Virus record (IMG/VR): IMGVR_UViG_3300017767_000007
Origin: an uncultured virus (IMG/VR IMGVR_UViG_3300017767_000007)
Taxonomy: Duplodnaviria; Heunggongvirae; Uroviricota; Caudoviricetes
Strand: one strand, 5' to 3'
Length of the DNA: 64,000 nucleotides
This document shows, piece after piece, positions 19,965 to 54,365 of the stretch. Position 1 is the first letter of the stretch, and every line of letters begins with the position of its first letter. A model generated the notes under the pieces. The model was not told the origin of the DNA and searched no databases. It saw only the letters and a list, made by a program, of their open reading frames with translations. The position numbers and the translations under genes were made by a program.

Positions 19965-20022
19965 AACCTTATATATGATGACTAACTAACTCATAATAAC
20001 CGAAAAAAGAACAGGTGATGTA

Positions 20023-23372: not shown

Positions 23373-23400
23373 AATTAAATGAATTTCAGTCAATGGAGAG

Positions 23401-24735: not shown

Positions 24736-24739
24736 TTTC

Positions 24740-25000: not shown

Positions 25001-25033
25001 TTCAATTCAAAGATAAAAATACGGGGCGATTGA

Positions 25034-25861
25034 ATGGCACTAAACAACTTTGACAGCACTTCAGACTTAGATGTAATAGAATACGATTGGCAGATTAGTC
25101 CAACACCCAAACGCATATACATTACAATTTCCAGCGAACCTGCCTTTGGCGGTCTGCTTATATCAAATGGTATTATTGGTAATAGAAAGCCTGTAGTAAA
25201 ATTTCACTCTAAGTGGTTCTATGACTCAACCTTTGGGCATAATAGCATGAAAATGGGAGATACAGGTGCATGTCTATACAAACTCAAGGGCGACAATTAC
25301 TTCTTAGAACTCGCAAATTGGCGACCATTCAATCTACATGACCCTGCTGCTGATTGGCTTTCGACTTATCCCCTTGTATCTGGTATATGCAAGTGGCTTT
25401 ATAGCAATCAATTTACAGAAGTTGTATCGCTATCCTCATCCGTCATACATGGATTTATTGACAGTCCAAAGTATTTACAATTCCCACCTGAAGAATTATA
25501 CATTCTTGACACTCAATCAGCCAAATACATACAAAAACCTGCCAAACCAAAAAACAAGAAACAACAGTTAATGCTGTCCCCACCACACTATCTCTTTACA
25601 AGGGTATGGGCTGAATACCTACCAACAGGGAAGTCATTAAATGTAGTCGCAGGGTCTGAAGGTATAGATAGCATAGACATTAAATCAGTAAATACATTAT
25701 CCACTTGGCTTAGGAGTCAAGGCATAACAATATCTCAAAAATCCATAGACAAGACTTACGCTGAAATAAAGAAAGCACAAAAAGAAGAATCTGTCGCTAT
25801 CTCGGAAAACCTTATAAGCAATAAGGTTAAGCCTTCAAATAACGGGGTGATGTATGGATGA
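25034..25861 (+). CDS. PAC2 (proteasome assembly chaperone)-like protein
   Basis: Pattern resemblance (GGLLISNGII...YPLVSGICKWL...FTEVVSLSS). Confidence 0.45.
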   Translation: MALNNFDSTSDLDVIEYDWQISPTPKRIYITISSEPAFGGLLISNGIIGNRKPVVKFHSKWFYDSTFGHNSMKMGDTGACLYKLKGDNYFLELANWRPFNLHDPAADWLSTYPLVSGICKWLYSNQFTEVVSLSSSVIHGFIDSPKYLQFPPEELYILDTQSAKYIQKPAKPKNKKQQLMLSPPHYLFTRVWAEYLPTGKSLNVVAGSEGIDSIDIKSVNTLSTWLRSQGITISQKSIDKTYAEIKKAQKEESVAISENLISNKVKPSNNGVMYG

Positions 25862-27872: not shown

Positions 27873-28093
27873 TGGATGACCTCACTATGAAGTGCGACTA
27901 TCCAATTGTTCTCGCCACACTAAATTCAGATGGAATACACTATACGCATACATTTTCAGGTATAGAATGGTGGTATCACGGACAGGAAGGAAGGGTATAT
28001 AAGGTATTACCTTCTCACATCAAGAGAGCGCATACCATAAATGATAGCACATGGCGCAGATTTATTGATTGGTTGGTGAAGGTGAATCCATGA
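27872..28093 (+). CDS. Hypothetical protein
   Basis: GGTGA RBS; coupled. Confidence 0.55.
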   Translation: MDDLTMKCDYPIVLATLNSDGIHYTHTFSGIEWWYHGQEGRVYKVLPSHIKRAHTINDSTWRRFIDWLVKVNP

Positions 28094-28761
28094 CTCTAAT
28101 TTTTACTGCAGACGATACTCCATACAAAGGCGGAGATGTTGTTGTCATGTATAAGTCAATCACTTATCCTCCGACTGCACCAAACACAACCTACATTCTG
28201 CACACTAATAAGGTTGTAATGTCTGATTTGATAGAATGGTTACCTCTTATTTCTTACAGATTAGTTGTAGTAACAGACAAGAAGCCCACTATACCTAAGC
28301 ATTTACAGGATGAAATAGTAATTCACCCATCACTAAACAAGGACAAAACAAACCATTTTAACGCCATCAATCCCATATTCCGATGGTCGGATAGACTAAG
28401 GGTGTTTAATGGCCTTGTAGGTGTCCCTATGCCCCTTATTTTGGCATTCTTGAAAGCGAACCGAACCACCGATATTGAAACCTTCAGACGATTGGCTAAA
28501 TCAACATATACACTCCCAGAGATTTATTCACAGGCTATCTTAGCGTATAGTGTTCAACCTATAAGTGGCAGGGTCGAATGGCCTAAGAAGAATCCGAAGT
28601 CAGATGAGCCAAACTCAACCATATTTAGGCATTCCGATGAATACCAAGACATTATAAGCCTCTATGCTGAAGATGTACTCAATGTCATTAGGGTTATTGC
28701 ACCTGAAGAAGTCCCAAAGGGGCAACCTAAGAGACAAACAAGCATAGTAGAGTGGTTATAG
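28069..28761 (+). CDS. PIP-box protein, possible degenerate clamp-loader large subunit
   Basis: C-terminal QTSIVEWL; likely ATG 28090. Confidence 0.45.
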   Translation: MVGEGESMTLIFTADDTPYKGGDVVVMYKSITYPPTAPNTTYILHTNKVVMSDLIEWLPLISYRLVVVTDKKPTIPKHLQDEIVIHPSLNKDKTNHFNAINPIFRWSDRLRVFNGLVGVPMPLILAFLKANRTTDIETFRRLAKSTYTLPEIYSQAILAYSVQPISGRVEWPKKNPKSDEPNSTIFRHSDEYQDIISLYAEDVLNVIRVIAPEEVPKGQPKRQTSIVEWL

Positions 28762-33572: not shown

Positions 33573-34808
33573 ATGAATAATAACCAACCCGATATAGAAA
33601 AAGTAGCCAGCCAAATTGGTGTGTCTGTTGATGCACTTAATTCAAGAATGAACCAAGTTTCTGCTTCACAATCTGAAGCATGGAAAGCGTCAGGGTATGA
33701 CGATGATAAAATTGCATCTCTAACCCTTCGTATTTCAGCAAGACAACTACATTCTGAAGCAACCAAGATTAAGAATTCTGGTGCTACTGTCCTTGAAGGT
33801 ATGGCATTGCGCTCTCCAAGATACAAAGACTGGGGCAAACTGCGCTATGACAAAATGACTAATCAACTGAAGACTTGTGATGAAGCAGTTCGTTCTAACT
33901 TGATTGAACAGGGTGCTATCGTTCTGTTTGAAAACAACCATGACGGCACTTGGACTCGTCACATCAATGAATCTCTTCGTAATAAAGAAGCGTTTGAAAT
34001 TGGTGCTATTGAAGATTCAGTTTCAACTCCACATGCTAAGGCAGTTGAAGTTGATGAAAACACTATGTATTACATTGTTGCAGATAAGTCTTCTCCTACA
34101 TGGCCTTCTGGTGATTCTAATTGGAGATACGGTTCTCCTTCTCCTGTATCGGATAAGAAAAGAACTGTTTACTTCTTAGGTCGTAAGCAAGGCTCAAACG
34201 ATGACATTTCTGAAATCCAATTGGTATTTAGTGGTGACATGGCAGAAGCATCTTTCCCTACATTCGTTCCTGGTTCTATCGCAGTTAAGATGAATCAAAA
34301 GAACACAGTTGGCTATGCTAAGGCTGGTGTCACAAGTCTAAATGAAGACCCTGCTCTTGCTTCTATCTTCCCTAATGCACCTGTCATGTTTGATGGTGAT
34401 GCACCTGCTGGTATGATGGTTGATGCTTTGGGTGGTCTTGAACCTCAAGGTCGCTTCTTGAAAGGATTTGACTCTATGGCTTCATACCTACAATCAGTCC
34501 CTGAAAGTGAAAAGTGGACTTCTTATTGTGGCCTAATCGCTGAAGTAGTTCACATTGACCCTCGTGACAAAGGTGGATATACTATTACTGTTGGCGACCT
34601 TGACATTCTATCATCAGCACCGACTCAAGATATATGGGTTGATGCAGACCAAGAACACCTAATCAACTTTGGTGTGGGTTCTCAATTGGCTCTATTCGGT
34701 ACTGTATGGCAGACCAAAGAAGGTGAACATCGTTTCTCCTGTCAAGGTTGGTATGTTGTTGAAACTGTTGAAGCATTGGCTGTTGAAGAAGATGGGTGGG
34801 ATGCCTGA
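33573..34808 (+). CDS. Putative OB-fold ssDNA-binding protein (RPA-like)
   Basis: Position between RFC and ATPase; acidic C-terminus EEDGWDA; OB-like C-terminal strands. Confidence 0.5.
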   Translation: MNNNQPDIEKVASQIGVSVDALNSRMNQVSASQSEAWKASGYDDDKIASLTLRISARQLHSEATKIKNSGATVLEGMALRSPRYKDWGKLRYDKMTNQLKTCDEAVRSNLIEQGAIVLFENNHDGTWTRHINESLRNKEAFEIGAIEDSVSTPHAKAVEVDENTMYYIVADKSSPTWPSGDSNWRYGSPSPVSDKKRTVYFLGRKQGSNDDISEIQLVFSGDMAEASFPTFVPGSIAVKMNQKNTVGYAKAGVTSLNEDPALASIFPNAPVMFDGDAPAGMMVDALGGLEPQGRFLKGFDSMASYLQSVPESEKWTSYCGLIAEVVHIDPRDKGGYTITVGDLDILSSAPTQDIWVDADQEHLINFGVGSQLALFGTVWQTKEGEHRFSCQGWYVVETVEALAVEEDGWDA

Positions 34809-35743
34809 TGTCTTGGGCTAATACTAATCAAAAGTCAGCGCCACCTGCTAAAACGGCATTCGGTGAAGAATACTACGCCAACCTGTTCGCTAAGAAGGTT
34901 GCTGCTCAAGAAGGTTCTCAAATCCGTATGGCTCTTGTAGGGCATGAAAATACGGCTAAGACAGGTCTTGCACTATCCTTTGCATATACTGAAGCCGACA
35001 AGAAGGCTGGTAAAAAGGTATTCATCTTTGACTTTGACAACTCGGCTCAATCCATTATTGACTACGCATACCCAGATGACCCAAACATCATCCGTCTGCC
35101 TATCCATGATGAAAACGACGAATCCATCTTCAATGAGGACAACACTGTTAATTGGTTGGCATTGATTGATAAGACTCAATGGTTTGTAAATATCGTCGCC
35201 AAAGAAGACCCTGCTAATGTTGCTGGTGTAGTCTTTGATGGTGGCTCATCTTTCCTAAAGATTTGTGAAATGGCTATGCGTGAATCTCTGGTTCGCAAAG
35301 GCATTATTTCAGATGAAGGCGATACCTTTAATCAAAAGGAATGGCAGGAAAGAAACCGTTTGTTCCGTCAAACTCTTAACCGTGTTCATGGACTTTCATT
35401 CAGCAAAGTGTTCTTTACCTTCCACCTGAAACCTATCAAACAATACATGGATGATGGCTCAGGCCGTAAAGTGCTCATGTCTATTGGTGAAAGACCTGAA
35501 TGGGAAAATGGTTCAATGCGACTGTTCTCTCAACAAATCTTCTTGAACCGATACATGAAGAAGGCTGACCCAGCGGCTGGTGTCAAGGCTGACAAATCTA
35601 TGGGTGAAGGCGAATGGTCTATCAGAGCAACTGTTGAAGAAATGAAGGGTAAAAACATGGAACATCTCGGACAAACATACGATGTATTAACTGTCAAGAA
35701 GGGAGATGTCAAGTGGAATGGCCTGCCTATGCTTGAATGGTGA
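34796..35743 (+). CDS. RecA-fold/Sak4-like (AAA_24) ATPase
   Basis: GHENTAKT P-loop, FDFD, VVFDG, FTFH; likely ATG 34808. Confidence 0.65.
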   Translation: MGCLMSWANTNQKSAPPAKTAFGEEYYANLFAKKVAAQEGSQIRMALVGHENTAKTGLALSFAYTEADKKAGKKVFIFDFDNSAQSIIDYAYPDDPNIIRLPIHDENDESIFNEDNTVNWLALIDKTQWFVNIVAKEDPANVAGVVFDGGSSFLKICEMAMRESLVRKGIISDEGDTFNQKEWQERNRLFRQTLNRVHGLSFSKVFFTFHLKPIKQYMDDGSGRKVLMSIGERPEWENGSMRLFSQQIFLNRYMKKADPAAGVKADKSMGEGEWSIRATVEEMKGKNMEHLGQTYDVLTVKKGDVKWNGLPMLEW

Positions 35744-37520: not shown

Positions 37521-38342
37521 ATGATAACCGTTAATGCTTCCGCTTTGAAACGCCTACTATGCCTGACCCAACGAAGACAAACCGTTGCTGGAAAGAATAA
37601 TCCTCAAGTTGTTGCTTGTGTGCTTAGAGCAGACAACCAAAGACTATCCACAACCTCTTTAGTGCGTGATGGTAAAACATCAGTTTCATACTTCCATGTC
37701 CCATGTGTGCATGAAGGAGAAGCACTTGATGGTATGCCCGTTCCAGACATTGACAGACTAATGGGTGTCCTAAAACACTTTACAGGTGAAATCAAAGTTA
37801 GCACATCTAAGACAGGTATTGTAGTCAAATCTTCTAAGAAGCAATCAACTCTTCAAGCCAACCTTAATGGTCTTGCTTTCCCTCATTCGACAGAAACTAT
37901 CGGGGCTTGGGAAGAAAAATCAATGGGTCTGGCTCAAAAGATAGATGGTAATACCTATAAGTTAGCAGACGGAAGTGTAATCAAACCGATGTGTTCTATA
38001 ACGATTAATGCTGATGAATTGGCTGATGCTTTGTCTGCTGACAACATGAACAACCAAAAACTAAACAGATACAAATTCCACATGGGCGGTGAATTTACCG
38101 ACTCTTATCTTCATGTGGGCGACCCACTCAAGGGTCAGACTATCGTTAAACTTGTTGAAGAATTGAAGCATGACTGTGATGAATGGGAATGGTCTTTTGA
38201 AGGAGGACTTGAAAATGTTGTGTCTTTCCTAAGCGGTGAACTCATCCTAAGTTTCTTAGACTTCCGACCATACGAACAGGGAATCCGTATGATTCTATCT
38301 GCTGACAATGGTTGGTTTATGCAAGCAGGGGTATTGGAATGA
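37521..38342 (+). CDS. Putative sliding clamp (PCNA-like)
   Basis: 273 aa two-domain pattern; context with RFC and PolB. Confidence 0.55.
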   Translation: MITVNASALKRLLCLTQRRQTVAGKNNPQVVACVLRADNQRLSTTSLVRDGKTSVSYFHVPCVHEGEALDGMPVPDIDRLMGVLKHFTGEIKVSTSKTGIVVKSSKKQSTLQANLNGLAFPHSTETIGAWEEKSMGLAQKIDGNTYKLADGSVIKPMCSITINADELADALSADNMNNQKLNRYKFHMGGEFTDSYLHVGDPLKGQTIVKLVEELKHDCDEWEWSFEGGLENVVSFLSGELILSFLDFRPYEQGIRMILSADNGWFMQAGVLE

Positions 38343-38635: not shown

Positions 38636-39811
38636 TTGATGCAATTGACGAATGATATAGTGCTTGAATGTGAGGTGCCAACTGATGATGCACTTCAGTA
38701 TGCTCTCGACATGTATGACATTGAAAAGGGTGCAGGATTAAAGACTGTCATTCCCGATAGAATCAATCCCCCTGAAGGTTGGGCTATTGGTGCTATTGTA
38801 GGTGCTTCTGGTGCTGGTAAAACAACGCTATTAAGTAATCGTTTCGGACACAATGAGGATGCAATCATACCCACCGATGGCAGTTCTGTAATATCGAACA
38901 TATCACGCATTTTGGGTGGTAATCCTGCCGAAGCATCTCGTATTCTATCAAGTGTCGGATTGGGGTCTGTCCCTGCTTGGATTAGACCACCGTTTTGCCT
39001 GTCAAATGGTGAACGATTCCGATTTGATTTGGCCTGCACTATCGCAGATGCCATAGCAAATGACATAGAAATTATCACCATAGATGAGTTTACATCTGTT
39101 GTTGATAGGAATGTAGCAAAGGCAGCCTCATTTGCGCTACAAAAGTTTGCTCGTAAGACGGGTCAAAAGTTGGTTGTCGCCTCATGCCATGACGATATAG
39201 TTGAATGGCTAAATCCAGATTGGGTTTACAATCCTCACGATGGCGAAACCGTTGTGAGCGACGACAGGGGGTGGTCGGTTCAACGACCTAAGATTGAACT
39301 CAAAATTCTCAGAGCAGAATATGATGCGTGGGACATGTTCAAGAAACATCATTATCTGACCGAAGATTTGAATAAGGCATGCAGATTATTTGTTGCTTAT
39401 TGGGATGGAAAACCTGTTGCCTGTAATGCTATTCTTCCATTCCCTAACGGTGGCATACAGAATGGTTGGCGTTCTTCTCGTGTTGTAGTATTGCCTGATT
39501 ATCAAGGATTAGGATTAGCGGGTGCATTGTCTGAATTTGTATCTTCTATGATAAAATCTCAAGAAGGAAGATTATTTGCTCGACTACGCCACCCTGCCTT
39601 AGCGAATCACAGATTGAACCGACCTAATACATGGAAAGAAACAGCCGTATCTCGCAAAGTGCATACGCATTCAGGTAATGAAGAATGGGGTTGGAAACAG
39701 AATGACCGTGAATGCTGGTCTTTTGAATACATTGGTGAACCATCAAGTCTGCATGACGCAGAACTGTTTTGGGGTATAAAATTTGAATCAGACAAACATG
39801 AGTGGCTATAA
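38636..39811 (+). CDS. ABC-type ATPase fused to Mom-like GNAT acyltransferase
   Basis: GASGAGKTT, LSNGE, ITIDEF, ASCH; then FKKHHYL and SRVVVLPDYQGLGLA; no TM partner. Confidence 0.8.
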   Translation: MMQLTNDIVLECEVPTDDALQYALDMYDIEKGAGLKTVIPDRINPPEGWAIGAIVGASGAGKTTLLSNRFGHNEDAIIPTDGSSVISNISRILGGNPAEASRILSSVGLGSVPAWIRPPFCLSNGERFRFDLACTIADAIANDIEIITIDEFTSVVDRNVAKAASFALQKFARKTGQKLVVASCHDDIVEWLNPDWVYNPHDGETVVSDDRGWSVQRPKIELKILRAEYDAWDMFKKHHYLTEDLNKACRLFVAYWDGKPVACNAILPFPNGGIQNGWRSSRVVVLPDYQGLGLAGALSEFVSSMIKSQEGRLFARLRHPALANHRLNRPNTWKETAVSRKVHTHSGNEEWGWKQNDRECWSFEYIGEPSSLHDAELFWGIKFESDKHEWL

Positions 39812-40125
39812 CATTTATATGTAATCAGCAGGAAGGACTTTATATGCACGATATAAGCACAGACAACATTGTCGCAGAAGTCCTCTGTCATGGAGATATT
39901 AACCGAACAACAGAATTTGAAGGGGAAGAATATATCCTTCAAATAACAGTAACTAAATTTGAAAACAAGTTATACCGTGATAAGCAGTGGCTCGTTGAAA
40001 ATTACATCAACAAGAACAGAACAATGGCAGACATTGCTGATAAAGCAAATGTTACTCCAGCAACAATCAATCAATGGCTCGTAAAGCACGAAATCCCTAC
40101 AAGAAGTCGTGGCAGACGCCAATGA
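39802..40125 (+). CDS. HTH DNA-binding protein
   Basis: RTMADIADKANVTPATINQWL. Confidence 0.7.
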   Translation: MAITFICNQQEGLYMHDISTDNIVAEVLCHGDINRTTEFEGEEYILQITVTKFENKLYRDKQWLVENYINKNRTMADIADKANVTPATINQWLVKHEIPTRSRGRRQ

Positions 40126-40177: not shown

Positions 40178-40450
40178 GTGGCACTTTGCCGTACCCCCAG
40201 AGGTCTCAATATGGTAACATGGATAGCAGTGTTTTTCGGTTTAGGATTAGGAATTTTAATCTCTTTACTAAACCCCATATCAGTAAGGATTGCTAAACGA
40301 TTTATGAAAGGTCGAGGTATTGAATTTTGTCGGTGTTGTGACGATGCTATCGCACACTCGCCTATCGGCTTATGCTCACCGTGTCAATACTTCTATGATG
40401 AAGAAGAAACAGCAAGATTAGAATATGAAAGATTGGAGATGGCTCAATGA
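40178..40450 (+). CDS. TM + zinc-finger protein
   Basis: Hydrophobic N-terminus, CRCC...CSPC. Confidence 0.5.
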   Translation: MALCRTPRGLNMVTWIAVFFGLGLGILISLLNPISVRIAKRFMKGRGIEFCRCCDDAIAHSPIGLCSPCQYFYDEEETARLEYERLEMAQ

Positions 40451-42645
40451 TTGTGGATAGAGGCAAAGGTAAGACTGTCTATATCAGATATCGTGACCCA
40501 ATAACACTTGAAAGGCAGAAGAAGACGATTAATAACATCTATCCCTACTGCTTTGTTGAAGATGAATCAGCACCATACATTGAAGCAGTTTCTAAAGAAG
40601 GTGGATATACGGGTCTTTACGGAGAATCACTCACTAAGGTCACTATGTATGACCCTGCTGAAGTAGGGAAATTGAAGAATATAGGTGCTACATGGGAGGC
40701 AAATATCCCCTTCGTCAATCGTGTTCTTGCAGACGCAAAACCCGACATACCAGATTACAAACACCGTATCTGGTATCTTGATGGTGAATGGTCTGTTAAT
40801 ACGGGTCAAATAACTCTTCTATCAGTCTATGACAACTATACGGAGAAGATGTTCACATGGTTTACTGCGGAAGGTTACAATGCAGGTAAGCATAAACAAG
40901 TGGGCGAATATACCCTTGATAACCCAGCATTAGCGTTTGATACTGAAAAAGAATTGCTGGCACACTTCATACAATTTATGAGAAGGCATGACCCAGATGT
41001 GATAACTGGTTGGTTCGTTGTTGGCGCTGACATAAAGCAAATAGTTGAGCGTTGCCGTAAAGTAGGAGTGGATTCTCGCAAAATGTCTCCATACAATCGA
41101 ATTAGATATGAATTTGATGATTGGTCGCAACCTATACCTGGCAGAAATTGTATTGACTTAATGCTCGCATTTAGCAAACTTTGGGAGATGAAGAACGGTA
41201 AATTGCCTGGCCTCAAGTTAGATGATGTAGCAGAAGAATGTTTGGGTGAAAGAAAGTTGGAGTTACCAGACGGACACGACACTTATTTCACTAACTTCCC
41301 TCTTTACTTGAGATACAACCAATTAGATGTCGAATTGTTACCTAAATTAAATGCCCTAAATAACGCCATAGAACACTATCTAAGCATCCAAACCATCGTC
41401 AAGTGCGATATACGCACAACACCATTTATTACCCGTATTTTCACTTGTTTAGCACTACAAGACGATGAATTTACTCTTAGAATCCCTTCTAAGGCTCAGT
41501 TTGCTAAAGTGCCTTATCCTGGAGCTGACATACAACAACCTGTGCCTGGAGTTTATGACAATGTTGCTATCATGGATATTAAGGCAATGTATCACTCAAA
41601 TGTCAATTTGCACAATATATCTTGGGAAACTCTCGATGAAGAGGGAAATGACTGTGGTAACGGTTCTAAGTTTAGGCATGGAAAGCGAGGTTTGTTGGGT
41701 CGTCAGATGGATAAGATGACCGAGTTAAGAAATCACTATAAGAAGTTAATGAAGGAGGCCAAGACACCCGAAGAGGCAAAGCGATACGATGCCTTACAAT
41801 ATGCTACTAAATCCCTCGTCGCTTCTATGTATGGTTGTGCTGGTGACAGTAAGTATGCTCTTTATCACCCAGAAGTTGCATCTGCTATCACATATACTTC
41901 CCGTCAAACCCTGTTCCGACTACGAGACGAATGTAAAAGTTTGGGATATGATGTTATATACGGTCATACTGACTCTATCTTCTGCACCGTTCCTTCACCC
42001 GAAGAAGGAGTCAAAGCAATGGATATTATCAATGAGAGAATGTCACCCATCGAGACTGAATTTGAAAGGTTTGCTAATACCATGTTAATATCAGCCAAGA
42101 ACAGGTATGTGGGTAATGTCACATGGGTTGATGGTGAATATGTTGAGCCACAAATGTATCTCAAGGGCATGGAGATTAAGCAATCTCGTATGCCACCTGC
42201 TATGAAAGATGCCGTAAAGACTGTAATAACAAGCATTCTTGAGCGAAAGCAACCACCTGTTGATGAATTAGCCAGAATAATTGAAGATATTATGGCGGGT
42301 GATATCTCACTTGAGGATTTGGCTATGAAGGGTAAATTGACTCAAGACCTTGACAAATACAAGGTTTTGTCTGGTGCTTCAGCAGGTGCTAAGTGGGCTA
42401 ATGATTATCTCGGCAAAGGTTATCGTGGAGGTGACTACTTCAAGACAACTCTTAACAGCGAAGGAAACTACATAGCATTTGACAAACCATCAGACCTTGA
42501 AGGCCTGAACATTGAAATTGGTTATTTACAAATTGTTCAGCGATTTATTATTGATAAGGTGAAACCCTTATTTGAAATAGCAGGCTGGTCTATCATACCA
42601 CTTGAGAATGCTCGAGACGGCAAATCTAAGGTTGCTTGGTTGTGA
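40447..42645 (+). CDS. polB: Family B DNA polymerase
   Basis: Exo YLDGE, DVITGW; DIKAMY, K...SMYG, YGHTDSIF, KNRY. Confidence 0.95.
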   Translation: MIVDRGKGKTVYIRYRDPITLERQKKTINNIYPYCFVEDESAPYIEAVSKEGGYTGLYGESLTKVTMYDPAEVGKLKNIGATWEANIPFVNRVLADAKPDIPDYKHRIWYLDGEWSVNTGQITLLSVYDNYTEKMFTWFTAEGYNAGKHKQVGEYTLDNPALAFDTEKELLAHFIQFMRRHDPDVITGWFVVGADIKQIVERCRKVGVDSRKMSPYNRIRYEFDDWSQPIPGRNCIDLMLAFSKLWEMKNGKLPGLKLDDVAEECLGERKLELPDGHDTYFTNFPLYLRYNQLDVELLPKLNALNNAIEHYLSIQTIVKCDIRTTPFITRIFTCLALQDDEFTLRIPSKAQFAKVPYPGADIQQPVPGVYDNVAIMDIKAMYHSNVNLHNISWETLDEEGNDCGNGSKFRHGKRGLLGRQMDKMTELRNHYKKLMKEAKTPEEAKRYDALQYATKSLVASMYGCAGDSKYALYHPEVASAITYTSRQTLFRLRDECKSLGYDVIYGHTDSIFCTVPSPEEGVKAMDIINERMSPIETEFERFANTMLISAKNRYVGNVTWVDGEYVEPQMYLKGMEIKQSRMPPAMKDAVKTVITSILERKQPPVDELARIIEDIMAGDISLEDLAMKGKLTQDLDKYKVLSGASAGAKWANDYLGKGYRGGDYFKTTLNSEGNYIAFDKPSDLEGLNIEIGYLQIVQRFIIDKVKPLFEIAGWSIIPLENARDGKSKVAWL

Positions 42646-46293: not shown

Positions 46294-46755
46294 TTAATTT
46301 ATAATTTCCAAGTGTGGCGACCACCATACTTCTCTATGCTCAAAATGCTTCCAAGTACTGTTAGACATAATTTTTTTGGCTTCAGAATGTGCAAGTTTAA
46401 TATAACCTAAATTGCTGACAACGCTCTTTAACTGAGACATTTTCGATTCTTCAATTGGATTTAATACTGCTACAATCGGTTTTCTAATTCGTTTGTTTCT
46501 TTCCTGTAAAATTTTAGTGTGATAACCTTTACCTCTAAAACCTCTCTTAACATAGGTATTTCCGACCAAAATAAAAGAATCTATGTATGCTGTGCAAGTG
46601 TATGCCACTGGGACATCTCCTTCATACAAAAACCAATATGTCGCAAAATCAAAAAGAGGTGGATAGCCCTTTTCTGTCGCTGGAATAATTTTTTCTCCCC
46701 AAATACTTTCAGCGTTTTCAATACCCATAACTAATTTTAAGAAAATGCTCATCAC
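46294..46755 (-). CDS. GNAT acetyltransferase
   Basis: NTYVKRGFRGKGY motif A; last gene of tail operon. Confidence 0.7.
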   Translation of the reverse strand: MMSIFLKLVMGIENAESIWGEKIIPATEKGYPPLFDFATYWFLYEGDVPVAYTCTAYIDSFILVGNTYVKRGFRGKGYHTKILQERNKRIRKPIVAVLNPIEESKMSQLKSVVSNLGYIKLAHSEAKKIMSNSTWKHFEHREVWWSPHLEIIN

Positions 46756-49700
46756 CTTGAAACTACATTTGTGTCAAAGACTTCTCCAGGACCATCAACC
46801 ATATTTGCGCCTGTTTTCATAGTTACGCTGATTGATGAAAGTTTTACGGATTCTTGAGCTGCTGTATCACCATTGATACCAGCCGCTCTTCTGATTGTAA
46901 TTTCTAAGTGATTACCTGCTACATCAGCACCTTCTATCTTTTGATTGAATAAATTGTGTCTTAAACCATTTTGGTTTATAGGGATGACAAGAGTTTCCGT
47001 TTTGCTAAATCCTGTTTCAACAACCTTTACAGTAGTGTATATCTTGGCAAACCCTTCTGCCGTTGGATTTGTATTAAGCCCTATTCCACTTGGAGTTGGA
47101 ATGGTACTTTGGTTAGTTTGAGCAGACTCTGAATGCACAGTAGTATCAACCTTAGAAAGAATAGTTACTGAATTATTTGTAACATTGTTAGGTACTACTT
47201 GTATTCCAGAAACTTCTGATACTTCGGCTTGTTCAGAATCACCAGCTGCAAATGTTCTGCCTGGCAATGAAATTCCAGTTTCGCTTAGAGCAGCACTTCC
47301 CCCCGATGGAGTAAAAACACCGTCATTAGAAACTAAAACAGAAGTTTCTATTGCTGCTGGCAATGGTCTGTCTTGACCTAATAACCCCCATTCCGAATTA
47401 CCCATAGGCACCTGCATTTTCTTTTTTAGTCTTCCCATAATGCCTTTAGATACTTGATTAATACCTATTGTGCTTGCAGTAGTGTAGCCTGTTTGACTAC
47501 CAAATGTTCCTGGTGGGGTCAATTCAGGTCTTGGTCTTGGTTTGGGTGCAGGACCTGTTGTATCTCCGCCTGGAGGCACAGGTTCGCCATCGTCTTCATC
47601 AGAATCTCCACGACCCGATGTTCCACCTGGTCCTGCTGGACTTGGTTTAGGGTCATTAATAATAGGAGGAGTCAAAAACATAGAACCTAAATTACTTAAG
47701 AAATGAGATTCATCAGTTGTTAGACCTAATACTACTTCTTCATGTCTTAGTGGGTTTATTTTCCATTGAACATTATTAATAATCAAAGGTTTGTTTGTAA
47801 ATCCATAGGTTGAATCGCTATACTGTAGAGCAGTTCCTGTTCTAAAGTTAATGTCGTCATTGATAATCAATCTCGGTGCATACCACAAAGTCCTGTCCCT
47901 CATACCAGACCCAAATTCGTCATAATATCTGCACCCAAGAGGGAATATAGACTTGTCATTATATGAACCGCTGCCGAGGAGGGTGAAGTAATTTGTCGGT
48001 GCGGATTCAACAGGTACTCCGTGAGCAGGATTTAAGATATTTCCTAATGTATCTCCACAACGCATTCTGATTAAAGATTCTAAGTATTCTCTGTTTACTG
48101 AAACTATAATTTTATTGACAATACCAGTTCCAAATGCGTATGTGGGTGGCAAATTAAGTTCAAGAAAACCATTATCCAATGAGCCATAACTAACGGTCTG
48201 TGAAAAGAAATCGTTTGCGTGGCTATGCCCTTGACCAGCTGCATTAACTGCTGCAATGTGATTCAAATCTCCTCTATTACAAGCCCCAAACCATTCTGCT
48301 TCACCTATTAGATTTGGGTCTCCATTTGAGTCAGTACCGTTAGAAGAAACAAAGCCTGTGTTTCTTGTTGCATTATCTCTGAATATAGGGTCAATAACTG
48401 TTATAATAAACTTTGCCGATGTAGCAGCCTCGTCAATTGTTCCAGGAGTAGGCGCACCACTTCTTGTCCCATCAACGCTAATAATAAATCTTAATTGATT
48501 TCCTGTTGTCATACTGTATTTAGGTAAGCCTTGAGGAACATAAACAACTTCAATAGCATTAGCAAGGCTGTTTGCACCATACCAATAATTATTTCCAGCC
48601 CAAGTAATTTCATCAGAAGCATTTACAACTGAAGCATCCCTGTTAGATGCTCCAATAAGAGGAGTATTGGTGTTATTGAGTTGGCCGTCAAGAGCACTTA
48701 CTGAACCAGAAAAGAAATTGTTGTTCATCCTTCCCATCATATAGTGCGGGTACTTACCGTATACTGTCCTTTGTGGGTCAGCAATATACCCATACCTTGC
48801 ACCATCAAGCATAACATCATCTGATTGCGTTCCTCGCACTACTTTTGCATTTAATGAAACGGGTGCTTTCTTTGCTTTCAAGTATTCTTGTTTTGCTAAA
48901 TACTCTGCTTCTGCTTTAGTTCCCACATCGGGCATATCCATAATTTTCCAGCGAATGTTTTCTGTCCCTACTACTTTTGGATAGTCACAAAATGACTTAG
49001 AATCATTGAAGTAAACTCTAACATGAGTTACTCTTTGTTGTATGCTTGTGTTCATATTAGATATATTCAAAACGCTTCTGTCGAGCGAGCGGAAAGAATT
49101 GTAGCCAGGTCTAAGTTCTATTCTGCCATCAGGACCAATTTGATAAGTAAATGTTTGTCCGAGGCCTGAAGTTCCAGTACCAGCTGCTTTTTGAATTTTT
49201 ACTATGGCACTATACATTGTTGAATTTTTAGCATTTACTACACTGCCAAAACTGTCAAATTGTGTATTATTGTGACCCCAGTGGGGACTGCCAATAGTTG
49301 CAGAGCCATTAGTGCTCATTATTTTTGTTTGTGGCACATTCTTAAAGGATGAAATACCTGTAAATTGAGATTTACCCAACCAATTTTTTGTCAAAGACAA
49401 CATATTTAAGAATCTAAACTTTTCGCTTTCAAACCATGTTCCGCTGTTTTCGTTTTCGACCTTACCAGAAATACGCATCATAAATCTCATACCACTAAGA
49501 GGAGCATACGAGTTATACGCAGTAACACTATCATAATCTTCTAAGTCAAATATCGCTCTTGAAGATGAACCGTTTTGTTGAGCAGCCTTAATGTTATTTG
49601 CTGCTATTGTTCTTTCAGCAGCAGTCTTGGTTGGAACTCCGTTCAAACCTCCTACAATATCAACGAACACATTGTTTAAATAGTTATCAACTGTATTTCG

Positions 49701-52700
49701 ACCAGACCAAGCATAATACCATGTATATGTTGTCTTTGTCTGTCCAGCTCCTTCAACTGCTACTATTCTTCCAACTCCGCTATCATCCCATTCTGTAACA
49801 TCGTCGAGGTATAACCTGTTAATTCCACTAAAATTATCTGGTTGGTTTCTTTTTACTTCCGACGCATCTTGAATAAAGTCCATTTGTTGAGGGTGAGGCA
49901 TATATGGGTGTTGAATAGTTTTGTATGAAGGCATTGCTTCAATCCAATAGTTATCCATCATAATTGGGAATCCGTGACCTACTGCAAAGTAATCTTGTAG
50001 GTCTGTCCTCCCACCACCTATTCTTCCTGTCCTTCCAAGATTTGCTTCAGTATTCACATTCCAGAATTTGCTTGTGTCAATAACAACAAAGGAACCTGCT
50101 TTATCTTCCCAATTGTGGTATATTGAATTAGAGTCAGAGTTTGAGCCAAGAGGTAAAGCAGACCAGGGTGCTTGAGTTACAGGTTCAAGCGTTGAATCTA
50201 ATTCCCATATGTCTAAGTCTTCACCAACCTTCAAATCAGCAAACTTAACAGGCGAGCCGTCAGGTTCTTCTGAATCAACAAATTCCATGCTAACACTATA
50301 ATTATTAGAAATAGGCATCATTAAACCAAACTTCTTTTTCCTTAAACCAGAATCAGCGTTAGCAGTTCCATCATTTCTCATATCAGCCCAGAGAATCCAA
50401 ATGTGTTTGTAATCGTTATCAATTTCTCTAAATCTTACAATACTTCCTGCAGAGTGGAATTTAGACAAAAATTGTACTCCTGTAATTGAAGCATAAGTCT
50501 GGTCGACTGCGTTAAAACCAGCTAAACCTGTAAATGTAAAAGAATCTACTGTTCCGTCAGCATCCACAATTTCTCCAACGCCACCTGATGTAGCCATTGT
50601 AGTTACTAATCCTATTGGGTTTCCTGTTGTTTGGTCGTTTAATGCTAATCTTGTATTTGCTATTGATACTGTTTGACCAGTTGTATATGCGTTAGGAAAA
50701 ATATCTGAAGATAATAATACATCTGGGTGATAGGTTGAACCATTTTTACCTTGACTGATTTTCTTTTCCTTGATACGCCCAAACTGCATTTGAAACCACT
50801 TAGATTTAGGCATATCTTGAATCCAACGAGAATGTACTGCTCTATATGGTCTGGCAATAGAATTATTAGCAGCAGCAAGAGGTGCAGTCGCTTGTTCGTT
50901 GCAATATTCTAAGTCAGGACTATCATACAAAAACCAGCCAACTTCTCCAGCAGTTCCTAATCCAAGCCCTGTTATTTCGTTGTGGTTATAATATAGGTTC
51001 GCTAAATCTCCATAAGTAGCGTTATATGTTCCGTTACCTAATTGAGAAACTTCAAGATAATGTGTCCCATCAATCCATGTTTGGCCTGGGTCTGGCATAT
51101 TACCAAAGCCTGTGATTTCAAATACAAGAGTTACAATCCCATCCCAATTATTACCTGTTGTCCCTTGTGGAATTTGAATTGGGTTTCCTTGAGCGTCATT
51201 CCCACCATATCTAATTACCAAGCGTTGCCCAATGTATAAATCCCAGATGTTGATATTTTCACCTGTCTTAAAGTAAAGTTTTGTTATTAAATTCCCAGCA
51301 GGTTCTGAGCCACCATGAGCATTATCAAGTATATTAGTAGCACTCCAATATTGCCAAACATTGTCGCCATTAGAATTAACTCTAAACCAACCCAACCTAT
51401 TTAACCAATCTTGCTGAGTATAGGAAAGTGTAGAATGAGCAGCATTCCAACTGGCATCAAACATTTGTCCAGCAAAAGTATCGTTATTTTGATTTTGACT
51501 TGTTGGTGGGCCTGGTAAAGCAGACCCAAACCCATTCCAACTTCTATACAAATTATCAAACGGAGTACTTCCTACAGTATAACCTCCACCAGGAACTTGT
51601 GCTCTTCCTGTCTTTGGGTTGTTAGGAATATCAGCGTCAATCAAAGCAAAATGATAACCACAATTTGAGCTCCTTGTTGTTTGTTGCCAATTTGTAGGGT
51701 CAGGAATATCTCCAGACCAAAGGGTATTAGGGTAATCGTGTTGAAGTGGTGTAATGTTTGCTGTTGTGTGCTTAACCCTATTACTGCTGGTTAATCTCAT
51801 TGGAATATCAAGGTTACCTCTTGTTAGGTCACGAGGAGTTACTGTTACTCCATTAATTGTGGTGGATGAGTCGCTTGGTAATTCAGATATTCTATTATAC
51901 CTTTGACCTGACTGACTTGCACCTCTAAAAACTCTTGTGTCTGAAATAGTAACATATTGCTTTTCCCAATCTATTAAATGTCTTGTGTTGCCTGCAGAAG
52001 AACTAACAAATTCACCACCTAAAAGAGCTGGATTTTTATAGATTTCATCGAATTGCAAAGTCCAGTAATGCTTTAGTCCTGTCTTATGCCTTCCGTCATC
52101 ATAACTGTCATTGTTGTCAATAGCCAAAATTTTACCTGATGGGACATATGTTTTGTCAATGTAAAAGTGATTTGTTGATGGGTCGTGAACTGTAAATGAG
52201 CCACTATAATTAGTTGAGCCTTGTATGTTTATTGTTTCTCCTTGAGTATATCCGTGAGCATCAGAATAAACTCTTAGTGGGTTTGTAAGTGCAGATGGAT
52301 TAGCATAAGTCGCTTCAGGCTTTTGGAATCCATAAATGTGAGTTTGACCTACATAATCGTATATAGTATCAGGTGCTCCTCCTTCTTCATTATACATTTG
52401 AATTGGGTGTCCCGAATTTAATCTCATTCTTGTTGATGTATCTGCATTATAGTTCGGTCTTTCATAACCTAAAGTACCTGTGCCTCTTTCAAGAGAAGTA
52501 GCACCTAAATGCAACTTTTCAATAAAGTTTGCAGATTCGTATGGTCGCCAGCCAATAGGTTCGGTTTCATCTATTTGTTCACTTTGTCCTACTTCCCAAA
52601 TAGGTATTGTTCGGTCAAGAGAAGCCAAATAATCTCTGGCACTCAACTTTATGATTTTTTCTCCAGGTCGGTTTTGGTTGCTGGTGTATCTTTCAATATG

Positions 52701-54365
52701 CCCTCTCCAAACGCAACGATGGATATTATCACGGAATAGCATCAGTTCTTGCAGTTGGTTTGTTTCTTCTTCAAAGACCTTAAAAATATCTAAGTTATCG
52801 AAATCATCATGTATGTCTAACTGGCATTGAGATATACCGTTTGAAGTATAGTTAATAGAAGCCCTTGACAAAGTAACCTGTTCACCGCCAATGCCAGATG
52901 AATCTGCAATATCACGCCAAAGATATGCTCGGTCAAGAAGTGTTGTAATTTGAACATAATCTGTGTCTGTCCCTGCTTCTTGGTAGCCATCAACCAATCC
53001 ACTATCAAGGGACAAATCCCAACCAAAAACTTCTGGTGCTTTGTATTTATTTCCTGTATCGGGGTTAATTCCTATTGCTTGTGCTGAAGCAACAACTTCA
53101 CCGTCATGTAATACATCATAAGTTCCTGCAGTCCAGTCAAACTTAAATTCAATATCATTCCAAATTTGCAGCAAAGTCCAGCGCCTTGTTTGGTCGGCTG
53201 ATGGTATAGCATTATCAGATGGAAAAGATGTGCTTTCAGGCGTTTGTCCGAAGTTTGCTAATACATTGTAGCCTCCGTCAACTGCGCCACCAGCCATTAC
53301 AAGAGAAGCAGAGTTTGAACCTGTTAATGCTGATTTTTTAAACCAGGGGTTTCTGTCAAGATAACCTGTTTTTAGACCTGTTGCTTCGGCTGTCAAAGGC
53401 GAGCCGCTGATTGCTGCGTTTTGTTTTCTTGAAGAAGTGGTAAATGTGTATGTAGCAGCTGGTACTGCTGAAGAAAATCCGTTAGCGTCAGTGTAGTCAT
53501 CCCTTCTAAATCCTACTTTTATTGTGTAAGAATGACCTGTTGATTGTCCGTTGTCCCAACCAGACCAATTGCGCCAAGCCATTCTAAGTCCAAAAATGTC
53601 TTTATCAGATGCAGCTCCTAAATTAGCGTTATAGGAAACAAGCCTTCTGGTCATATTTTCTCTAATGTGAGTGTTAATTGCTAACATAGGTTTTCCAGAA
53701 TCAAGAGATTCAATTGGTTCTAAGATAGCCTTTGAAAATGGGTCTCCTGCATAACCTGTTTTTAGTTGGTTAGCGTCTGGAGCAACTTCTCCTACATGAA
53801 CGCTGCAAATGTTTGCATATTGAAAGATGTTAGTCGCTGAAGCAAAGGAATCAGATTCAGCACTCCCACCTTTGTATAAATTGCTTGAAACCATATCAGG
53901 AATCGTGATTGCTGCGCTTTTTCCTTGCGATGGGTCATTGTTACCCAAATGAACAGAATAACGCCCAGAAGTGTTATATCCGTTTGTTAAAGTTTGAAAG
54001 GAATCAAGAGATGCGTCTGCACCAAATTTGTATCGGTTGCCTTGTGTAATACCATCGGGATATGAGGGTTGAGCCTTTCCTTCATACTTCCCAGAGTTTT
54101 TTCTCATAGTGTCGTTTGTTAAAAATTCATGAGCACCTAAATTATGAGTTTCATCTCCGTCAACTCGCTCTTTGTATGCCTTTTTGTATCGAGGGTTAAG
54201 GCGAGCCTCACCATTTAAAGAATTACCAAAATGGCTTGCTGTGTGAACAATTAGTCCAGTTAAATTAGGGTTGTTTTCATCATCAGCAATTGCTCGACTT
54301 GCGTTAAAGTCGTCATAGTAACCTGCCAAAAATACTGAATACTTTCTATCTACTGACTTTGCCAT
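46752..54365 (-). CDS. Very large tail tip/central fibre protein
   Basis: 2537 aa directly after tape measure; hub-like segment (WRGHIERY...SARDYL); Pro/Gly linker. Confidence 0.75.
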   Translation of the reverse strand: MAKSVDRKYSVFLAGYYDDFNASRAIADDENNPNLTGLIVHTASHFGNSLNGEARLNPRYKKAYKERVDGDETHNLGAHEFLTNDTMRKNSGKYEGKAQPSYPDGITQGNRYKFGADASLDSFQTLTNGYNTSGRYSVHLGNNDPSQGKSAAITIPDMVSSNLYKGGSAESDSFASATNIFQYANICSVHVGEVAPDANQLKTGYAGDPFSKAILEPIESLDSGKPMLAINTHIRENMTRRLVSYNANLGAASDKDIFGLRMAWRNWSGWDNGQSTGHSYTIKVGFRRDDYTDANGFSSAVPAATYTFTTSSRKQNAAISGSPLTAEATGLKTGYLDRNPWFKKSALTGSNSASLVMAGGAVDGGYNVLANFGQTPESTSFPSDNAIPSADQTRRWTLLQIWNDIEFKFDWTAGTYDVLHDGEVVASAQAIGINPDTGNKYKAPEVFGWDLSLDSGLVDGYQEAGTDTDYVQITTLLDRAYLWRDIADSSGIGGEQVTLSRASINYTSNGISQCQLDIHDDFDNLDIFKVFEEETNQLQELMLFRDNIHRCVWRGHIERYTSNQNRPGEKIIKLSARDYLASLDRTIPIWEVGQSEQIDETEPIGWRPYESANFIEKLHLGATSLERGTGTLGYERPNYNADTSTRMRLNSGHPIQMYNEEGGAPDTIYDYVGQTHIYGFQKPEATYANPSALTNPLRVYSDAHGYTQGETINIQGSTNYSGSFTVHDPSTNHFYIDKTYVPSGKILAIDNNDSYDDGRHKTGLKHYWTLQFDEIYKNPALLGGEFVSSSAGNTRHLIDWEKQYVTISDTRVFRGASQSGQRYNRISELPSDSSTTINGVTVTPRDLTRGNLDIPMRLTSSNRVKHTTANITPLQHDYPNTLWSGDIPDPTNWQQTTRSSNCGYHFALIDADIPNNPKTGRAQVPGGGYTVGSTPFDNLYRSWNGFGSALPGPPTSQNQNNDTFAGQMFDASWNAAHSTLSYTQQDWLNRLGWFRVNSNGDNVWQYWSATNILDNAHGGSEPAGNLITKLYFKTGENINIWDLYIGQRLVIRYGGNDAQGNPIQIPQGTTGNNWDGIVTLVFEITGFGNMPDPGQTWIDGTHYLEVSQLGNGTYNATYGDLANLYYNHNEITGLGLGTAGEVGWFLYDSPDLEYCNEQATAPLAAANNSIARPYRAVHSRWIQDMPKSKWFQMQFGRIKEKKISQGKNGSTYHPDVLLSSDIFPNAYTTGQTVSIANTRLALNDQTTGNPIGLVTTMATSGGVGEIVDADGTVDSFTFTGLAGFNAVDQTYASITGVQFLSKFHSAGSIVRFREIDNDYKHIWILWADMRNDGTANADSGLRKKKFGLMMPISNNYSVSMEFVDSEEPDGSPVKFADLKVGEDLDIWELDSTLEPVTQAPWSALPLGSNSDSNSIYHNWEDKAGSFVVIDTSKFWNVNTEANLGRTGRIGGGRTDLQDYFAVGHGFPIMMDNYWIEAMPSYKTIQHPYMPHPQQMDFIQDASEVKRNQPDNFSGINRLYLDDVTEWDDSGVGRIVAVEGAGQTKTTYTWYYAWSGRNTVDNYLNNVFVDIVGGLNGVPTKTAAERTIAANNIKAAQQNGSSSRAIFDLEDYDSVTAYNSYAPLSGMRFMMRISGKVENENSGTWFESEKFRFLNMLSLTKNWLGKSQFTGISSFKNVPQTKIMSTNGSATIGSPHWGHNNTQFDSFGSVVNAKNSTMYSAIVKIQKAAGTGTSGLGQTFTYQIGPDGRIELRPGYNSFRSLDRSVLNISNMNTSIQQRVTHVRVYFNDSKSFCDYPKVVGTENIRWKIMDMPDVGTKAEAEYLAKQEYLKAKKAPVSLNAKVVRGTQSDDVMLDGARYGYIADPQRTVYGKYPHYMMGRMNNNFFSGSVSALDGQLNNTNTPLIGASNRDASVVNASDEITWAGNNYWYGANSLANAIEVVYVPQGLPKYSMTTGNQLRFIISVDGTRSGAPTPGTIDEAATSAKFIITVIDPIFRDNATRNTGFVSSNGTDSNGDPNLIGEAEWFGACNRGDLNHIAAVNAAGQGHSHANDFFSQTVSYGSLDNGFLELNLPPTYAFGTGIVNKIIVSVNREYLESLIRMRCGDTLGNILNPAHGVPVESAPTNYFTLLGSGSYNDKSIFPLGCRYYDEFGSGMRDRTLWYAPRLIINDDINFRTGTALQYSDSTYGFTNKPLIINNVQWKINPLRHEEVVLGLTTDESHFLSNLGSMFLTPPIINDPKPSPAGPGGTSGRGDSDEDDGEPVPPGGDTTGPAPKPRPRPELTPPGTFGSQTGYTTASTIGINQVSKGIMGRLKKKMQVPMGNSEWGLLGQDRPLPAAIETSVLVSNDGVFTPSGGSAALSETGISLPGRTFAAGDSEQAEVSEVSGIQVVPNNVTNNSVTILSKVDTTVHSESAQTNQSTIPTPSGIGLNTNPTAEGFAKIYTTVKVVETGFSKTETLVIPINQNGLRHNLFNQKIEGADVAGNHLEITIRRAAGINGDTAAQESVKLSSISVTMKTGANMVDGPGEVFDTNVVSR

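Follow-up and report, generated by a model that had tools for sequence, protein, structure and literature searches.

What does an ABC-type ATPase do for a virus when it is fused to an acetyltransferase-like domain and encoded among replication genes, with no transporter beside it? This question is raised by a gene in a 64,000-nucleotide stretch of DNA (the window) from an uncultured marine tailed virus of the class Caudoviricetes, IMG/VR record IMGVR_UViG_3300017767_000007. The product of the gene joins an ABC ATPase to a domain of the GNAT superfamily. The original prediction read this fusion protein as a relative of Mom, the DNA-modifying enzyme of phage Mu, and proposed that it is a replication-coupled base modifier acting at the triplet [GC]AG (SAG), which is missing from one zone of the window.

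As judged by sequence comparison, the protein is a new member of an already predicted viral ABC-ATPase/GNAT family, here in a virus of archaeal type. The best explanation of its function, held with moderate confidence, is that it would be a clamp-tethered, ATP-gated and acyl-CoA-dependent acyltransferase that acts on newly replicated viral DNA and serves an accessory self-marking or anti-restriction purpose. The proposal of a replication-coupled base modifier is thus plausible, given a published prediction for the family, the clamp-type tails of its members, and the position of the gene in a replication module. The Mom and SAG parts of the proposal did not fare as well. The profile comparisons indicate that the label 'Mom-like' should be dropped, and SAG would be just one candidate for the targeted motif.

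An intact ABC ATPase fused to a GNAT domain

The original prediction described the protein as having every ABC motif, joined to a GNAT domain with an HHYL motif and an acyl-CoA motif. Each of these elements could be located by residue (Table 1); the ABC motifs lie within the first ~210 residues, and the GNAT domain takes up the last ~175. An ATG is found at 38639, the residue at which the ESM Atlas entry begins, and is probably the true start of the gene. Conservation was assessed in an alignment of 39 homologues with 40-86% identity, in which most motif positions are invariant. In the Walker B and D-loop segment, the catalytic glutamate is Glu151, and D150, E151, T153, S154, and V156 are invariant. 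The segment RVVVLPDYQGLGLAG of the GNAT domain contains the Q/RxxGxG/A acyl-CoA loop. Its QGLGLAG portion is conserved, and R282, V284, L286, P287, D288, Q290, and G291 are invariant. One IMG/VR homologue (L006, 2540-3088) carries a single in-frame stop within the CoA loop of its GNAT domain and was excluded from the alignment; the stop may reflect a pseudogene, a recoding site, or a sequencing error.

Domain searches and structure models identified the same two halves. In Pfam, the protein matched Acetyltransf_7 (E 6.7e-7) and Acetyltransf_1 (E 5.7e-6), both above the cut-off, and the ABC_tran match (E 8.7e-5) was just short of its cut-off. An AlphaFold2 model of the whole protein, built on the homologue alignment, had a predicted local distance difference test score (pLDDT) of 86.5 and a predicted template modelling score of 0.78. 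The N-terminal half of this model matched ABC nucleotide-binding domains (NBDs) such as those of FbpC and MalK in Foldseek (E ~1e-8). Profile matches of the ABC half in the PDB included OpuCA (8e-14), ABC-F proteins, and UvrA, and PADLOC returned only P-loop-level matches. By its motifs, the ABC half is a single intact NBD that is predicted to be hydrolysis-competent and has no membrane partner. The lack of a transporter membrane subunit, pointed out in the original prediction, was borne out by the finding that none of the 79 window open reading frames (ORFs) of at least 70 aa carries a Pfam ABC membrane domain.

Membership in a viral family with a predicted DNA-acylating role

The fusion protein matched phrog_11143, a family annotated as 'unknown function', with an E-value of 5.1e-97, and residues 8-371 aligned to profile positions 3-354 of 357. 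It displays the traits of this family. In other words, a single ABC NBD with all motifs is followed by a GNAT domain with a CoA loop, the invariant motifs are the same, and the gene resides in a viral replication module, in this case between clamp-loader, chaperonin, and clamp-like genes on one side and the gene for a family B DNA polymerase (PolB) on the other. The family is large. Relatives were found by tblastn in 86 GenBank phage records, every one of them below 60% identity, and the hosts of these phages belong to Bacteroidota, Actinobacteria, Firmicutes, Proteobacteria, and Spirochaetes. A protein search, in which 8000 candidates were scored, gave 2480 clusters at E<=1e-3. In IMG/VR, the number of stretches with a relative is at least 593 (593 of 598 pattern-matched stretches), and many ESM Atlas clusters, mostly viral, have the ABC-GNAT architecture.

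A function for such proteins has been predicted previously. In the accessible part of PMC7824862, a 'GNAT coupled with an ABC ATPase' is predicted by Iyer et al. to acylate a DNA base. The same text cites Iyer, Zhang, Burroughs & Aravind NAR 2013 for the ABC-ATPase/GNAT system and names Tenacibaculum phage pT24 as an example. The pT24 protein is 47% identical to the window protein across 70% of the protein. The accessible portions of the magrovirus papers, including PMC5434244, do not mention the fusion gene.

C-terminal tails of a clamp-binding type

What would bring such an enzyme to replicating DNA? The fusion protein ends in ...DKHEWL, and E389 and W390 of this tail are invariant in 14 close homologues. 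PolB of the same virus ends in ...KVAWL, and a 230-aa ORF (28069-28758, + strand) ends in ...IVEWL. Altogether, (E/A)WL endings occur in 3 of the 79 window ORFs, as compared with ~0.3 expected from residue frequencies. Furthermore, the PolB orthologues of four complete relatives of the virus (G002-G005) and of one further IMG/VR locus (L002) all end in xW[LV] (5/5). That several replication proteins share a tail of tryptophan and a hydrophobic residue suggests that they dock at one site, perhaps the clamp. Among other replication proteins, EEW[IT] endings are seen in the Cas4-like nucleases of three relatives, and an LEW ending in the AAA_24 protein of the window (34796-35743, + strand).

Among the homologues from bacterial phages, a different tail is found. 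Of 47 distinct full-length IMG/VR homologues of this kind, 19 end in Q..[LIM]F (for example, AQNQISLF and SQNQLSLF), and only 5 of 1007 other ORFs of at least 80 aa from the same IMG/VR loci do so. We take Q..[LIM]F to be a type of bacterial beta-clamp-binding motif. The tails thus appear to fit the domain of life of the hosts, with Q..LF in bacterial phages and a PolB-like EWL in the archaeal-type virus. Host-matched clamp-type tails therefore argue that the substrate is replicating DNA, and they support a predicted clamp-tethered, replication-coupled action.

Clamp tethering is known for other proteins that work at DNA. DNMT1 has a PIP box, and T4 gp43, gp33, and gp55 bind gp45 via their C-terminal tails. 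By analogy, a C-terminal peptide like that of the replicative polymerase would recruit the fusion protein to the sliding clamp, and its peptide is indeed of the same type as the tail of its own PolB (EWL versus AWL). The comparison with DNMT1 has two limits: DNMT1 transfers a methyl group whereas the fusion protein is predicted to transfer an acyl group, and the putative clamp binding of the fusion protein comes from motif statistics. A candidate for the clamp itself is the 273-aa ORF at 37521-38342. Of the ESM Atlas clusters that have a name, the closest to it are gp45 sliding clamps (0.90-0.91). Searches of this ORF against Pfam, PHROG, and PDB sequences or profiles gave no match. The placement of the fusion gene between a clamp-like gene and polB, as originally described, is correct, with two small ORFs (one for a helix-turn-helix (HTH) protein and one of 90 aa) lying before PolB; the clamp label is a lead only.

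The family and the prediction of DNA acylation were already known. What is new is the EWL tail that matches PolB in the window and the Q..[LIM]F tails of the bacterial-phage homologues.

Gene neighbourhoods and the accessory nature of the gene

Family members are consistently located in modules for replication, recombination, and packaging. Across 80 IMG/VR loci, the genes within five positions of a family member encoded DnaA_C-type HTH proteins (20), AAA_25/DnaB-like proteins (17), DUF6291 (17), DUF3799 PD-(D/E)XK proteins (13), NinG (12), DnaB (10, of which 8 at -1), ERF (9), and DUF3850/ASCH (8), with PolB likewise among the neighbours. No conserved permease partner was present among the neighbours at these 80 loci. 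When the 144 distinct immediate neighbours were considered, DnaB_C was found at -1 in 7/71, and ASCH/DUF3850 (7/73), DnaA_C (5), and NinG (4) were found at +1; 83 of the 144 had no Pfam match.

Some members of the family have recurrent partners. A short Formyl_trans_N protein is encoded directly 3' of the ABC-GNAT gene in Porphyromonas phage008a (L192), Gordonia BiggityBass (L191), and Burkholderia phiE255 (L195). The two genes often overlap and make up a conserved two-gene module that is shared by phages whose hosts belong to three bacterial phyla. The pair of the Mu-like phage phiE255 sits after the tail-fibre genes, the place that com-mom occupies in Mu. The phiE255 family member would thus stand in the place of mom. 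In Streptococcus 315.4 (L189, 13548-15552) and Lactococcus P335 (L190), a ParB_N gene lies directly 5'. The order in these two is ParB_N, an ABC ORF, and a separate GNAT ORF, just upstream of the terminase genes, and 315.4 has an ASCH gene at +2. P335, 315.4, and Enterococcus 9184 encode the ABC and GNAT parts as two separate ORFs. No ParB_N, ASCH, or formyltransferase partner is present among the window ORFs. In other words, the window copy differs from other family members in that it stands alone. It also differs in having an EWL tail like that of its own PolB instead of Q..LF, and in belonging to a virus with a chaperonin in its replication cluster and a PolB that is most similar to those of haloarchaeal tailed viruses.

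The fusion gene is accessory, because it is missing from the same locus in the four complete relatives G002-G005 (CheckV 100%; TerL, the large terminase, 61-70% identical). These genomes keep the order of clamp-like gene, HTH gene, and PolB gene, and the distance from the start of the clamp-like gene to that of the HTH gene is 895-1169 bp, compared with 2281 bp in the window. Neither the fusion protein nor the family profile found a match in G002-G005; the near-identical IMG/VR record G001, used as a positive control, gave 2e-170. The HTH gene was considered as a dedicated partner of the fusion gene and rejected, because the four relatives without the fusion retain it at 50-56% identity. At L002, the fusion protein is 60% identical to that of the window, and the flanking ORFs at -1 and +1 match those of the window in position and size. 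The ORF at -1 is 47% identical to the clamp-like protein of the window.

Comparison with known acyltransferases

Does the GNAT fold reveal what is acylated? The GNAT domain was also modelled alone from a 44-sequence alignment (pLDDT 84.7), and its best matches in Foldseek and VIA-align were generic GNATs. RimI was at the top with a Z-score of 12.7, Naa50 (12.2) and Naa10/Ard1 (11.8) scored nearly as high, and many small-molecule GNATs fell at Z 11-12.4. The superpositions on RimI, Naa50, and Naa10/Ard1 (four entries) had a root-mean-square deviation of ~3 Å over ~134 residues at 12-17% identity. Because these protein acetyltransferases and many other GNATs tie on Z, the fold gives no pointer to a nucleic-acid acceptor. 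RimI, Naa10, and Naa50 are the best structural superpositions of the domain; unlike the fusion protein, they have no ATPase and no clamp tail, their identity is low, and their scores are tied with those of unrelated GNATs.

Mom has a GNAT superfamily fold, which it shares with the GNAT domain of the fusion protein, and it is a phage enzyme that modifies DNA after replication. Homology to Mom was nevertheless rejected, as the Pfam, sequence-profile, and profile-profile comparisons were all negative. Mom has its own Pfam family, PF25680, which the fusion protein did not match at E<=0.01. When the alignment of the GNAT domain was compared with Mu Mom by hhalign, the probability was 0.09%, and with an alignment of 28 Mom members it was 0.46%. 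The Mom structure 8BV8 was not among the 33 PDB matches of the GNAT profile at E<=10, though it was in the searched PDB set. Mom was also not in the Foldseek or VIA-align matches shown for the GNAT model, which is not evidence of a different fold. The profile comparisons therefore spoke against the Mom-like assignment.

The only stretch that hhalign aligned placed FKxHHYL on H58-Y59 of Mom, and this alignment, though suggestive, is not significant. According to the accessible text of PMC13219725, H58-Y59 are among the putative active-site residues of Mom, and their alanine variants have drastically lowered activity. The same text states that Mom transfers glycine from Gly-tRNA(Gly), that its sequence motif is SAS, and that N6-acyl adenine is unstable. 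The two proteins differ in several respects. Mom uses an aminoacyl-tRNA donor and has no CoA loop, whereas the fusion protein keeps a canonical one, and Mom has no ABC ATPase. Mom has an essential HTH-like insertion (residues ~175-209), and the GNAT model shows a low-confidence loop at domain residues ~125-150 with no helical insertion, in a comparison for which no reliable alignment is at hand. The alignment of the Mom catalytic residues R111, S124, D149, and R151 to the fusion protein is not significant, and only the HHY falls on H58-Y59.

TmcA/NAT10 follow the same logic as the fusion protein, since in them a P-loop ATPase is fused to an acetyl-CoA-using GNAT that acts on a nucleobase amine. 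However, their ATPase is of the helicase type and that of the fusion protein is of the ABC type, and the clamp-type tails of the fusion family point to DNA. No TmcA-type helicase, GNAT_acetyltr_2, or TmcA Pfam domain was matched in the fusion protein. The GNAT profile gave weak matches over the CoA loop to RNA cytidine acetyltransferases, with E-values of 0.03-0.075 (0.03 for NAT10). A further link is that ASCH proteins, which are associated with the ABC-GNAT family, are described in the accessible parts of PMC6972931 and bioRxiv 2026.02.27.708502 as amidohydrolases, or erasers, of N4-acetylcytidine (ac4C) that remove the N4-acetyl group from cytidine.

A SAG-free zone beside the terminase gene

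The SAG part of the original prediction rests on an unusual region of the genome. From 47 bp past terL, a stretch of 1762 bp (10490-12252) has no [GC]AG and no CT[GC] (CTS) on either strand, and the mean spacing of this motif is 19 bp. On the + strand alone, the SAG-free region extends from 10462 to 12541. All other triplets are present in the zone. Its gap-times-density score is 91.6, and no motif in any of the other genomes scanned scores above 39. All 12 IMG/VR loci with TerL at 80% identity or higher and at least 1.4 kb of downstream sequence have such a zone, 1364-2320 bp long, in the same place, and it is absent (longest gap at most 274 bp) in 12 loci with TerL at 70% identity or lower and at least 2 kb downstream. 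Several versions of the zone are not alignable with that of the window at the DNA level, and all are still SAG-free. The sole gene of the zone that was kept in all 11 zone-bearing relatives compared is a 123-aa ORF (10916-11284, + strand; 30-94% identity); L102, which is essentially the same virus, was omitted from this comparison. The ORFs of the zone and of the early block, including the 123-aa ORF, had no PHROG or Pfam match.

The composition of the zone gives a clue to how SAG may have been lost. In six zone versions (10490-12252 of the window and those of L084, L085, L088, L089, and L104), the most enriched triplets were CGG/CCG (2.3-3.4x) and GGG/CCC (1.7-2.9x), and the synonymous escapes CAA/TTG and GAA/TTC were not enriched (~1). 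CGG/CCG and GGG/CCC are the products of A-to-G change at SAG, and their enrichment therefore points to adenine. The zones are 3-9 points higher in G+C than their surroundings. A related bias is seen in four ORFs farther along, at 13559-14005 (-), 14747-15271 (+), 15980-16453 (-), and 16902-17453 (-), whose sense strands have 0-3 CTS and 29-32 SAG. The template strand of these ORFs is therefore nearly SAG-free, a strand-specific form of the same avoidance. None of the four had a Pfam or PHROG match. Hiraoka 2022 makes no mention of SAG, CTSAG, or magrovirus.

Is the zone tied to the fusion gene? In the co-occurrence check, the one finding in favour was that the four complete relatives G002-G005 have neither zone nor gene, which amounts to one phylogenetic contrast. 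However, about 40 further ORFs of the window are likewise missing from these genomes, the entire block at 10.5-25.8 kb among them. These same relatives share the structural and replication modules with the window. As an observation on this block, its ~29 ORFs (10500-25800), one of which encodes an ArdC-N/zincin protein (20023-21186), had no tblastn match in the four genomes. The zone-bearing G006-G009 (27-53% complete) contain no copy of the gene, but by the window map they are too short to reach its locus. G001 joins zone and gene, but it is essentially the same virus as that of the window. Gene-bearing relatives with 59-98% identity lie on contigs of at most 26 kb that do not reach terL. One metagenome scan found close homologues only on contigs of at most 20 kb, and G010, whose gene is 60% identical, holds no terL. 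Two complete gene carriers, Nonlabens P12024S and Streptococcus 315.4, have no motif-free zone (best scores 24 and 19.8). No motif-free zone of any 3- or 4-mer was found in 47 gene-bearing IMG/VR loci of at least 8 kb (best score 18), or in the 25.5 kb of phiE255 that were scanned.

What the enzyme may act on

The preferred mechanism of a DNA acyltransferase can be laid out as follows. Two copies of the fusion protein would form an ATP-sandwich homodimer, as in all ABC ATPases, and close on DNA. The C-terminal tail would bind the viral sliding clamp, and the GNAT domain would move an acyl group from acyl-CoA in a step gated by ATP. The acceptor would be DNA rather than protein, most likely the exocyclic amine of a base, and the resulting base mark may have an accessory self-marking or anti-restriction function. 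Several points weigh against this mechanism. An enzyme tethered to the clamp could equally acetylate a protein of the replisome, and the closest solved folds are protein N-terminal acetyltransferases, tied with other GNATs at Z 11-12.7. ASCH partners are as compatible with RNA as with DNA as the target. The strict Q..[LIM]F ending is present in just 19 of the 47 homologues, and for the 273-aa ORF the clamp assignment is no more than a lead. In the literature, we found predictions but no experimental work on any member of the ABC-GNAT family.

One rival keeps the clamp and changes the acceptor: the protein may be a clamp- or replisome-associated protein acetyltransferase acting on a replisome component, the clamp, or a host factor, with the ABC domain as an ATP-gated adaptor. 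We consider this unlikely but the idea has substance, as the best structural matches are RimI, Naa50, and Naa10/Ard1, the acetyl-CoA loop is canonical, and phage GNATs that acetylate host proteins are known, such as Rac of phiKMV (accessible text of PMC7824862). Yet these matches are tied with small-molecule GNATs, and the ParB_N, ASCH, and formyltransferase partners, together with the mom-like position in phiE255, fit nucleic-acid chemistry better. The nucleic acid could also be RNA. If the enzyme were an ATP-dependent RNA or tRNA cytidine acetyltransferase following the logic of TmcA/NAT10, it would produce ac4C, and the neighbouring ASCH proteins would be the erasers. ASCH/DUF3850 is the commonest annotated +1 neighbour and also lies at +2 in 315.4, its erasing activity is documented in the sources cited above, the weak CoA-loop matches point the same way, and ABC-F proteins are among the nearer ABC relatives. 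We nevertheless find an RNA target very improbable: the TmcA-type helicase and GNAT_acetyltr_2 matches are lacking, no ASCH gene was found among the window ORFs, and the clamp-type tails and the replication-module context point to DNA. Farthest from credible is an orphan ABC transporter ATPase fused to a small-molecule acetyltransferase as an auxiliary metabolic or resistance gene. It has in its favour that databases use names such as 'ABC transporter ATP-binding protein' and that the NBD fold is nearest to transporter NBDs, but the window encodes no membrane subunit, the 80 loci show no permease partner, the family is overwhelmingly viral and found in DNA-metabolism modules, and its tails are of the clamp-binding type.

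A more specific version of DNA acylation is that, as replication proceeds, the enzyme acylates SAG at its adenine (or CTS at its cytosine), so that the zone and the SAG-poor template strands at 13.5-17.5 kb are places where the mark is forbidden; we regard this as quite improbable. In its fullest and equally doubtful form, the clamp-riding ABC-GNAT protein would acylate the SAG adenine on all progeny DNA, the modified template would block or mislead polymerases, and SAG would have been purged from ~1.4-2.3 kb beside terL and from neighbouring template strands, largely by A-to-G change. In favour of a SAG writer, the zone is real and extreme in both score and length, it is kept beside terL in 12/12 close loci despite largely unalignable DNA, four complete relatives are without both zone and gene, and the enriched triplets point to adenine. 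Mom's own motif, SAS (PMC13219725, accessible text), is a further point in favour. No competing methyltransferase came to light. The original prediction had recognized none in the window, and by Pfam none was matched among the 79 ORFs or in the 759-aa ORF that fills the remaining ~1.7 kb, which extends the negative to the ~65.7-kb genome. Against a SAG writer, the contrast with the four relatives is a single one in which about 40 other ORFs are missing too, G006-G009 fall short of the gene locus, and G001 is essentially the same virus. P12024S, 315.4, and the 47 IMG/VR loci carry the gene without a motif-free zone, the GNAT domain has no specific similarity to Mom, and the instability of N6-acyl adenine (same text) is a further difficulty. 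The tie of the zone to the gene is thus thin, and the SAG writer is a long shot that stands as an open, testable hypothesis, neither shown nor refuted.

The virus and the layout of the locus

The coordinates relative to G001 indicate a genome of ~65.7 kb, circular or permuted, of which the window is nearly the whole. The ~1.7 kb beyond it is part of the junction-spanning 759-aa ORF (G001:C1:30300-33000, L194), which has no Pfam match. The window encodes a portal protein, a large terminase, tail proteins, an ArdC-like protein, a clamp-loader-like AAA+ protein, an AAA_24 ATPase, a GroEL-like chaperonin, PolB, a Cas4-like nuclease, and an ERCC4 nuclease. The nearest relatives of PolB are those of haloarchaeal tailed viruses (23-25% identity), and a chaperonin within the replication cluster is a magrovirus trait (accessible part of PMC5434244). 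The virus is therefore probably archaeal. A large ORF (46752-54365, - strand, 2537 aa) adjoins a tape-measure-like gene; it has no Pfam match and is 26-31% identical to its counterparts in relatives.

Table 1. Positions of the fusion gene, its domains and motifs, and the surrounding genes in the window.
Feature	Position	Strand	Residues	Remarks
Candidate gp45-like sliding clamp, 273-aa ORF	37521..38342	+		Kept in 5 relatives, 27-48% identity; ESM Atlas lead
ABC-ATPase/GNAT fusion gene	38636..39811	+		391 aa from TTG 38636
ABC-type nucleotide-binding domain	38636..39265	+	~1-210	AlphaFold2 model, Foldseek, and PDB profile matches
Walker A GASGAGKT	38801..38824	+	56-63	
ABC signature variant LSNGE	38999..39013	+	122-126	L122, S123, G125 invariant (39 sequences)
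Walker B IITIDEF and D-loop SVVD	39071..39106	+	146-152 and 154-157	Walker B alone 39071-39091
H-loop SCHDD	39182..39196	+	183-187	C184, H185 invariant
GNAT domain	39284..39745	+	~217-370	Pfam, domain model, and structure matches
HHYL	39347..39358	+	238-241	End of GNAT helix 1; H239 invariant, Y240 nearly so
Strand 4 and acyl-CoA pyrophosphate loop RVVVLPDYQGLGLAG	39479..39523	+	282-296	
C-terminal tail HEWL, candidate clamp-binding peptide	39797..39808	+		Conservation; PolB-like ending
107-aa HTH protein	39802..40125	+		10-nt overlap with 3' end of fusion gene
Family B DNA polymerase (PolB)	40447..42645	+		Ends in ...KVAWL

Implications for the ABC-ATPase/GNAT family

What do these findings mean for the family? 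If the gene and the zone are unlinked, the gene is an ordinary accessory member of its family and the zone needs another explanation. If the link between them is true, the zone would show for the first time which sequence a member of the family prefers, and the chemistry would be directed at adenine, parallel to that of Mom and yet CoA-dependent. If the SAG reading in particular is true, the zone would be the footprint, left in a genome, from which the specificity of an uncharacterized DNA-acylation family can be read. With thousands of clusters, 86 GenBank records, and at least 593 IMG/VR stretches, the ABC-ATPase/GNAT proteins are among the commonest viral enzyme families with a predicted DNA-modifying role, and the clamp-type tails, together with the extreme and conserved SAG-free zone of this lineage, make this family more testable.

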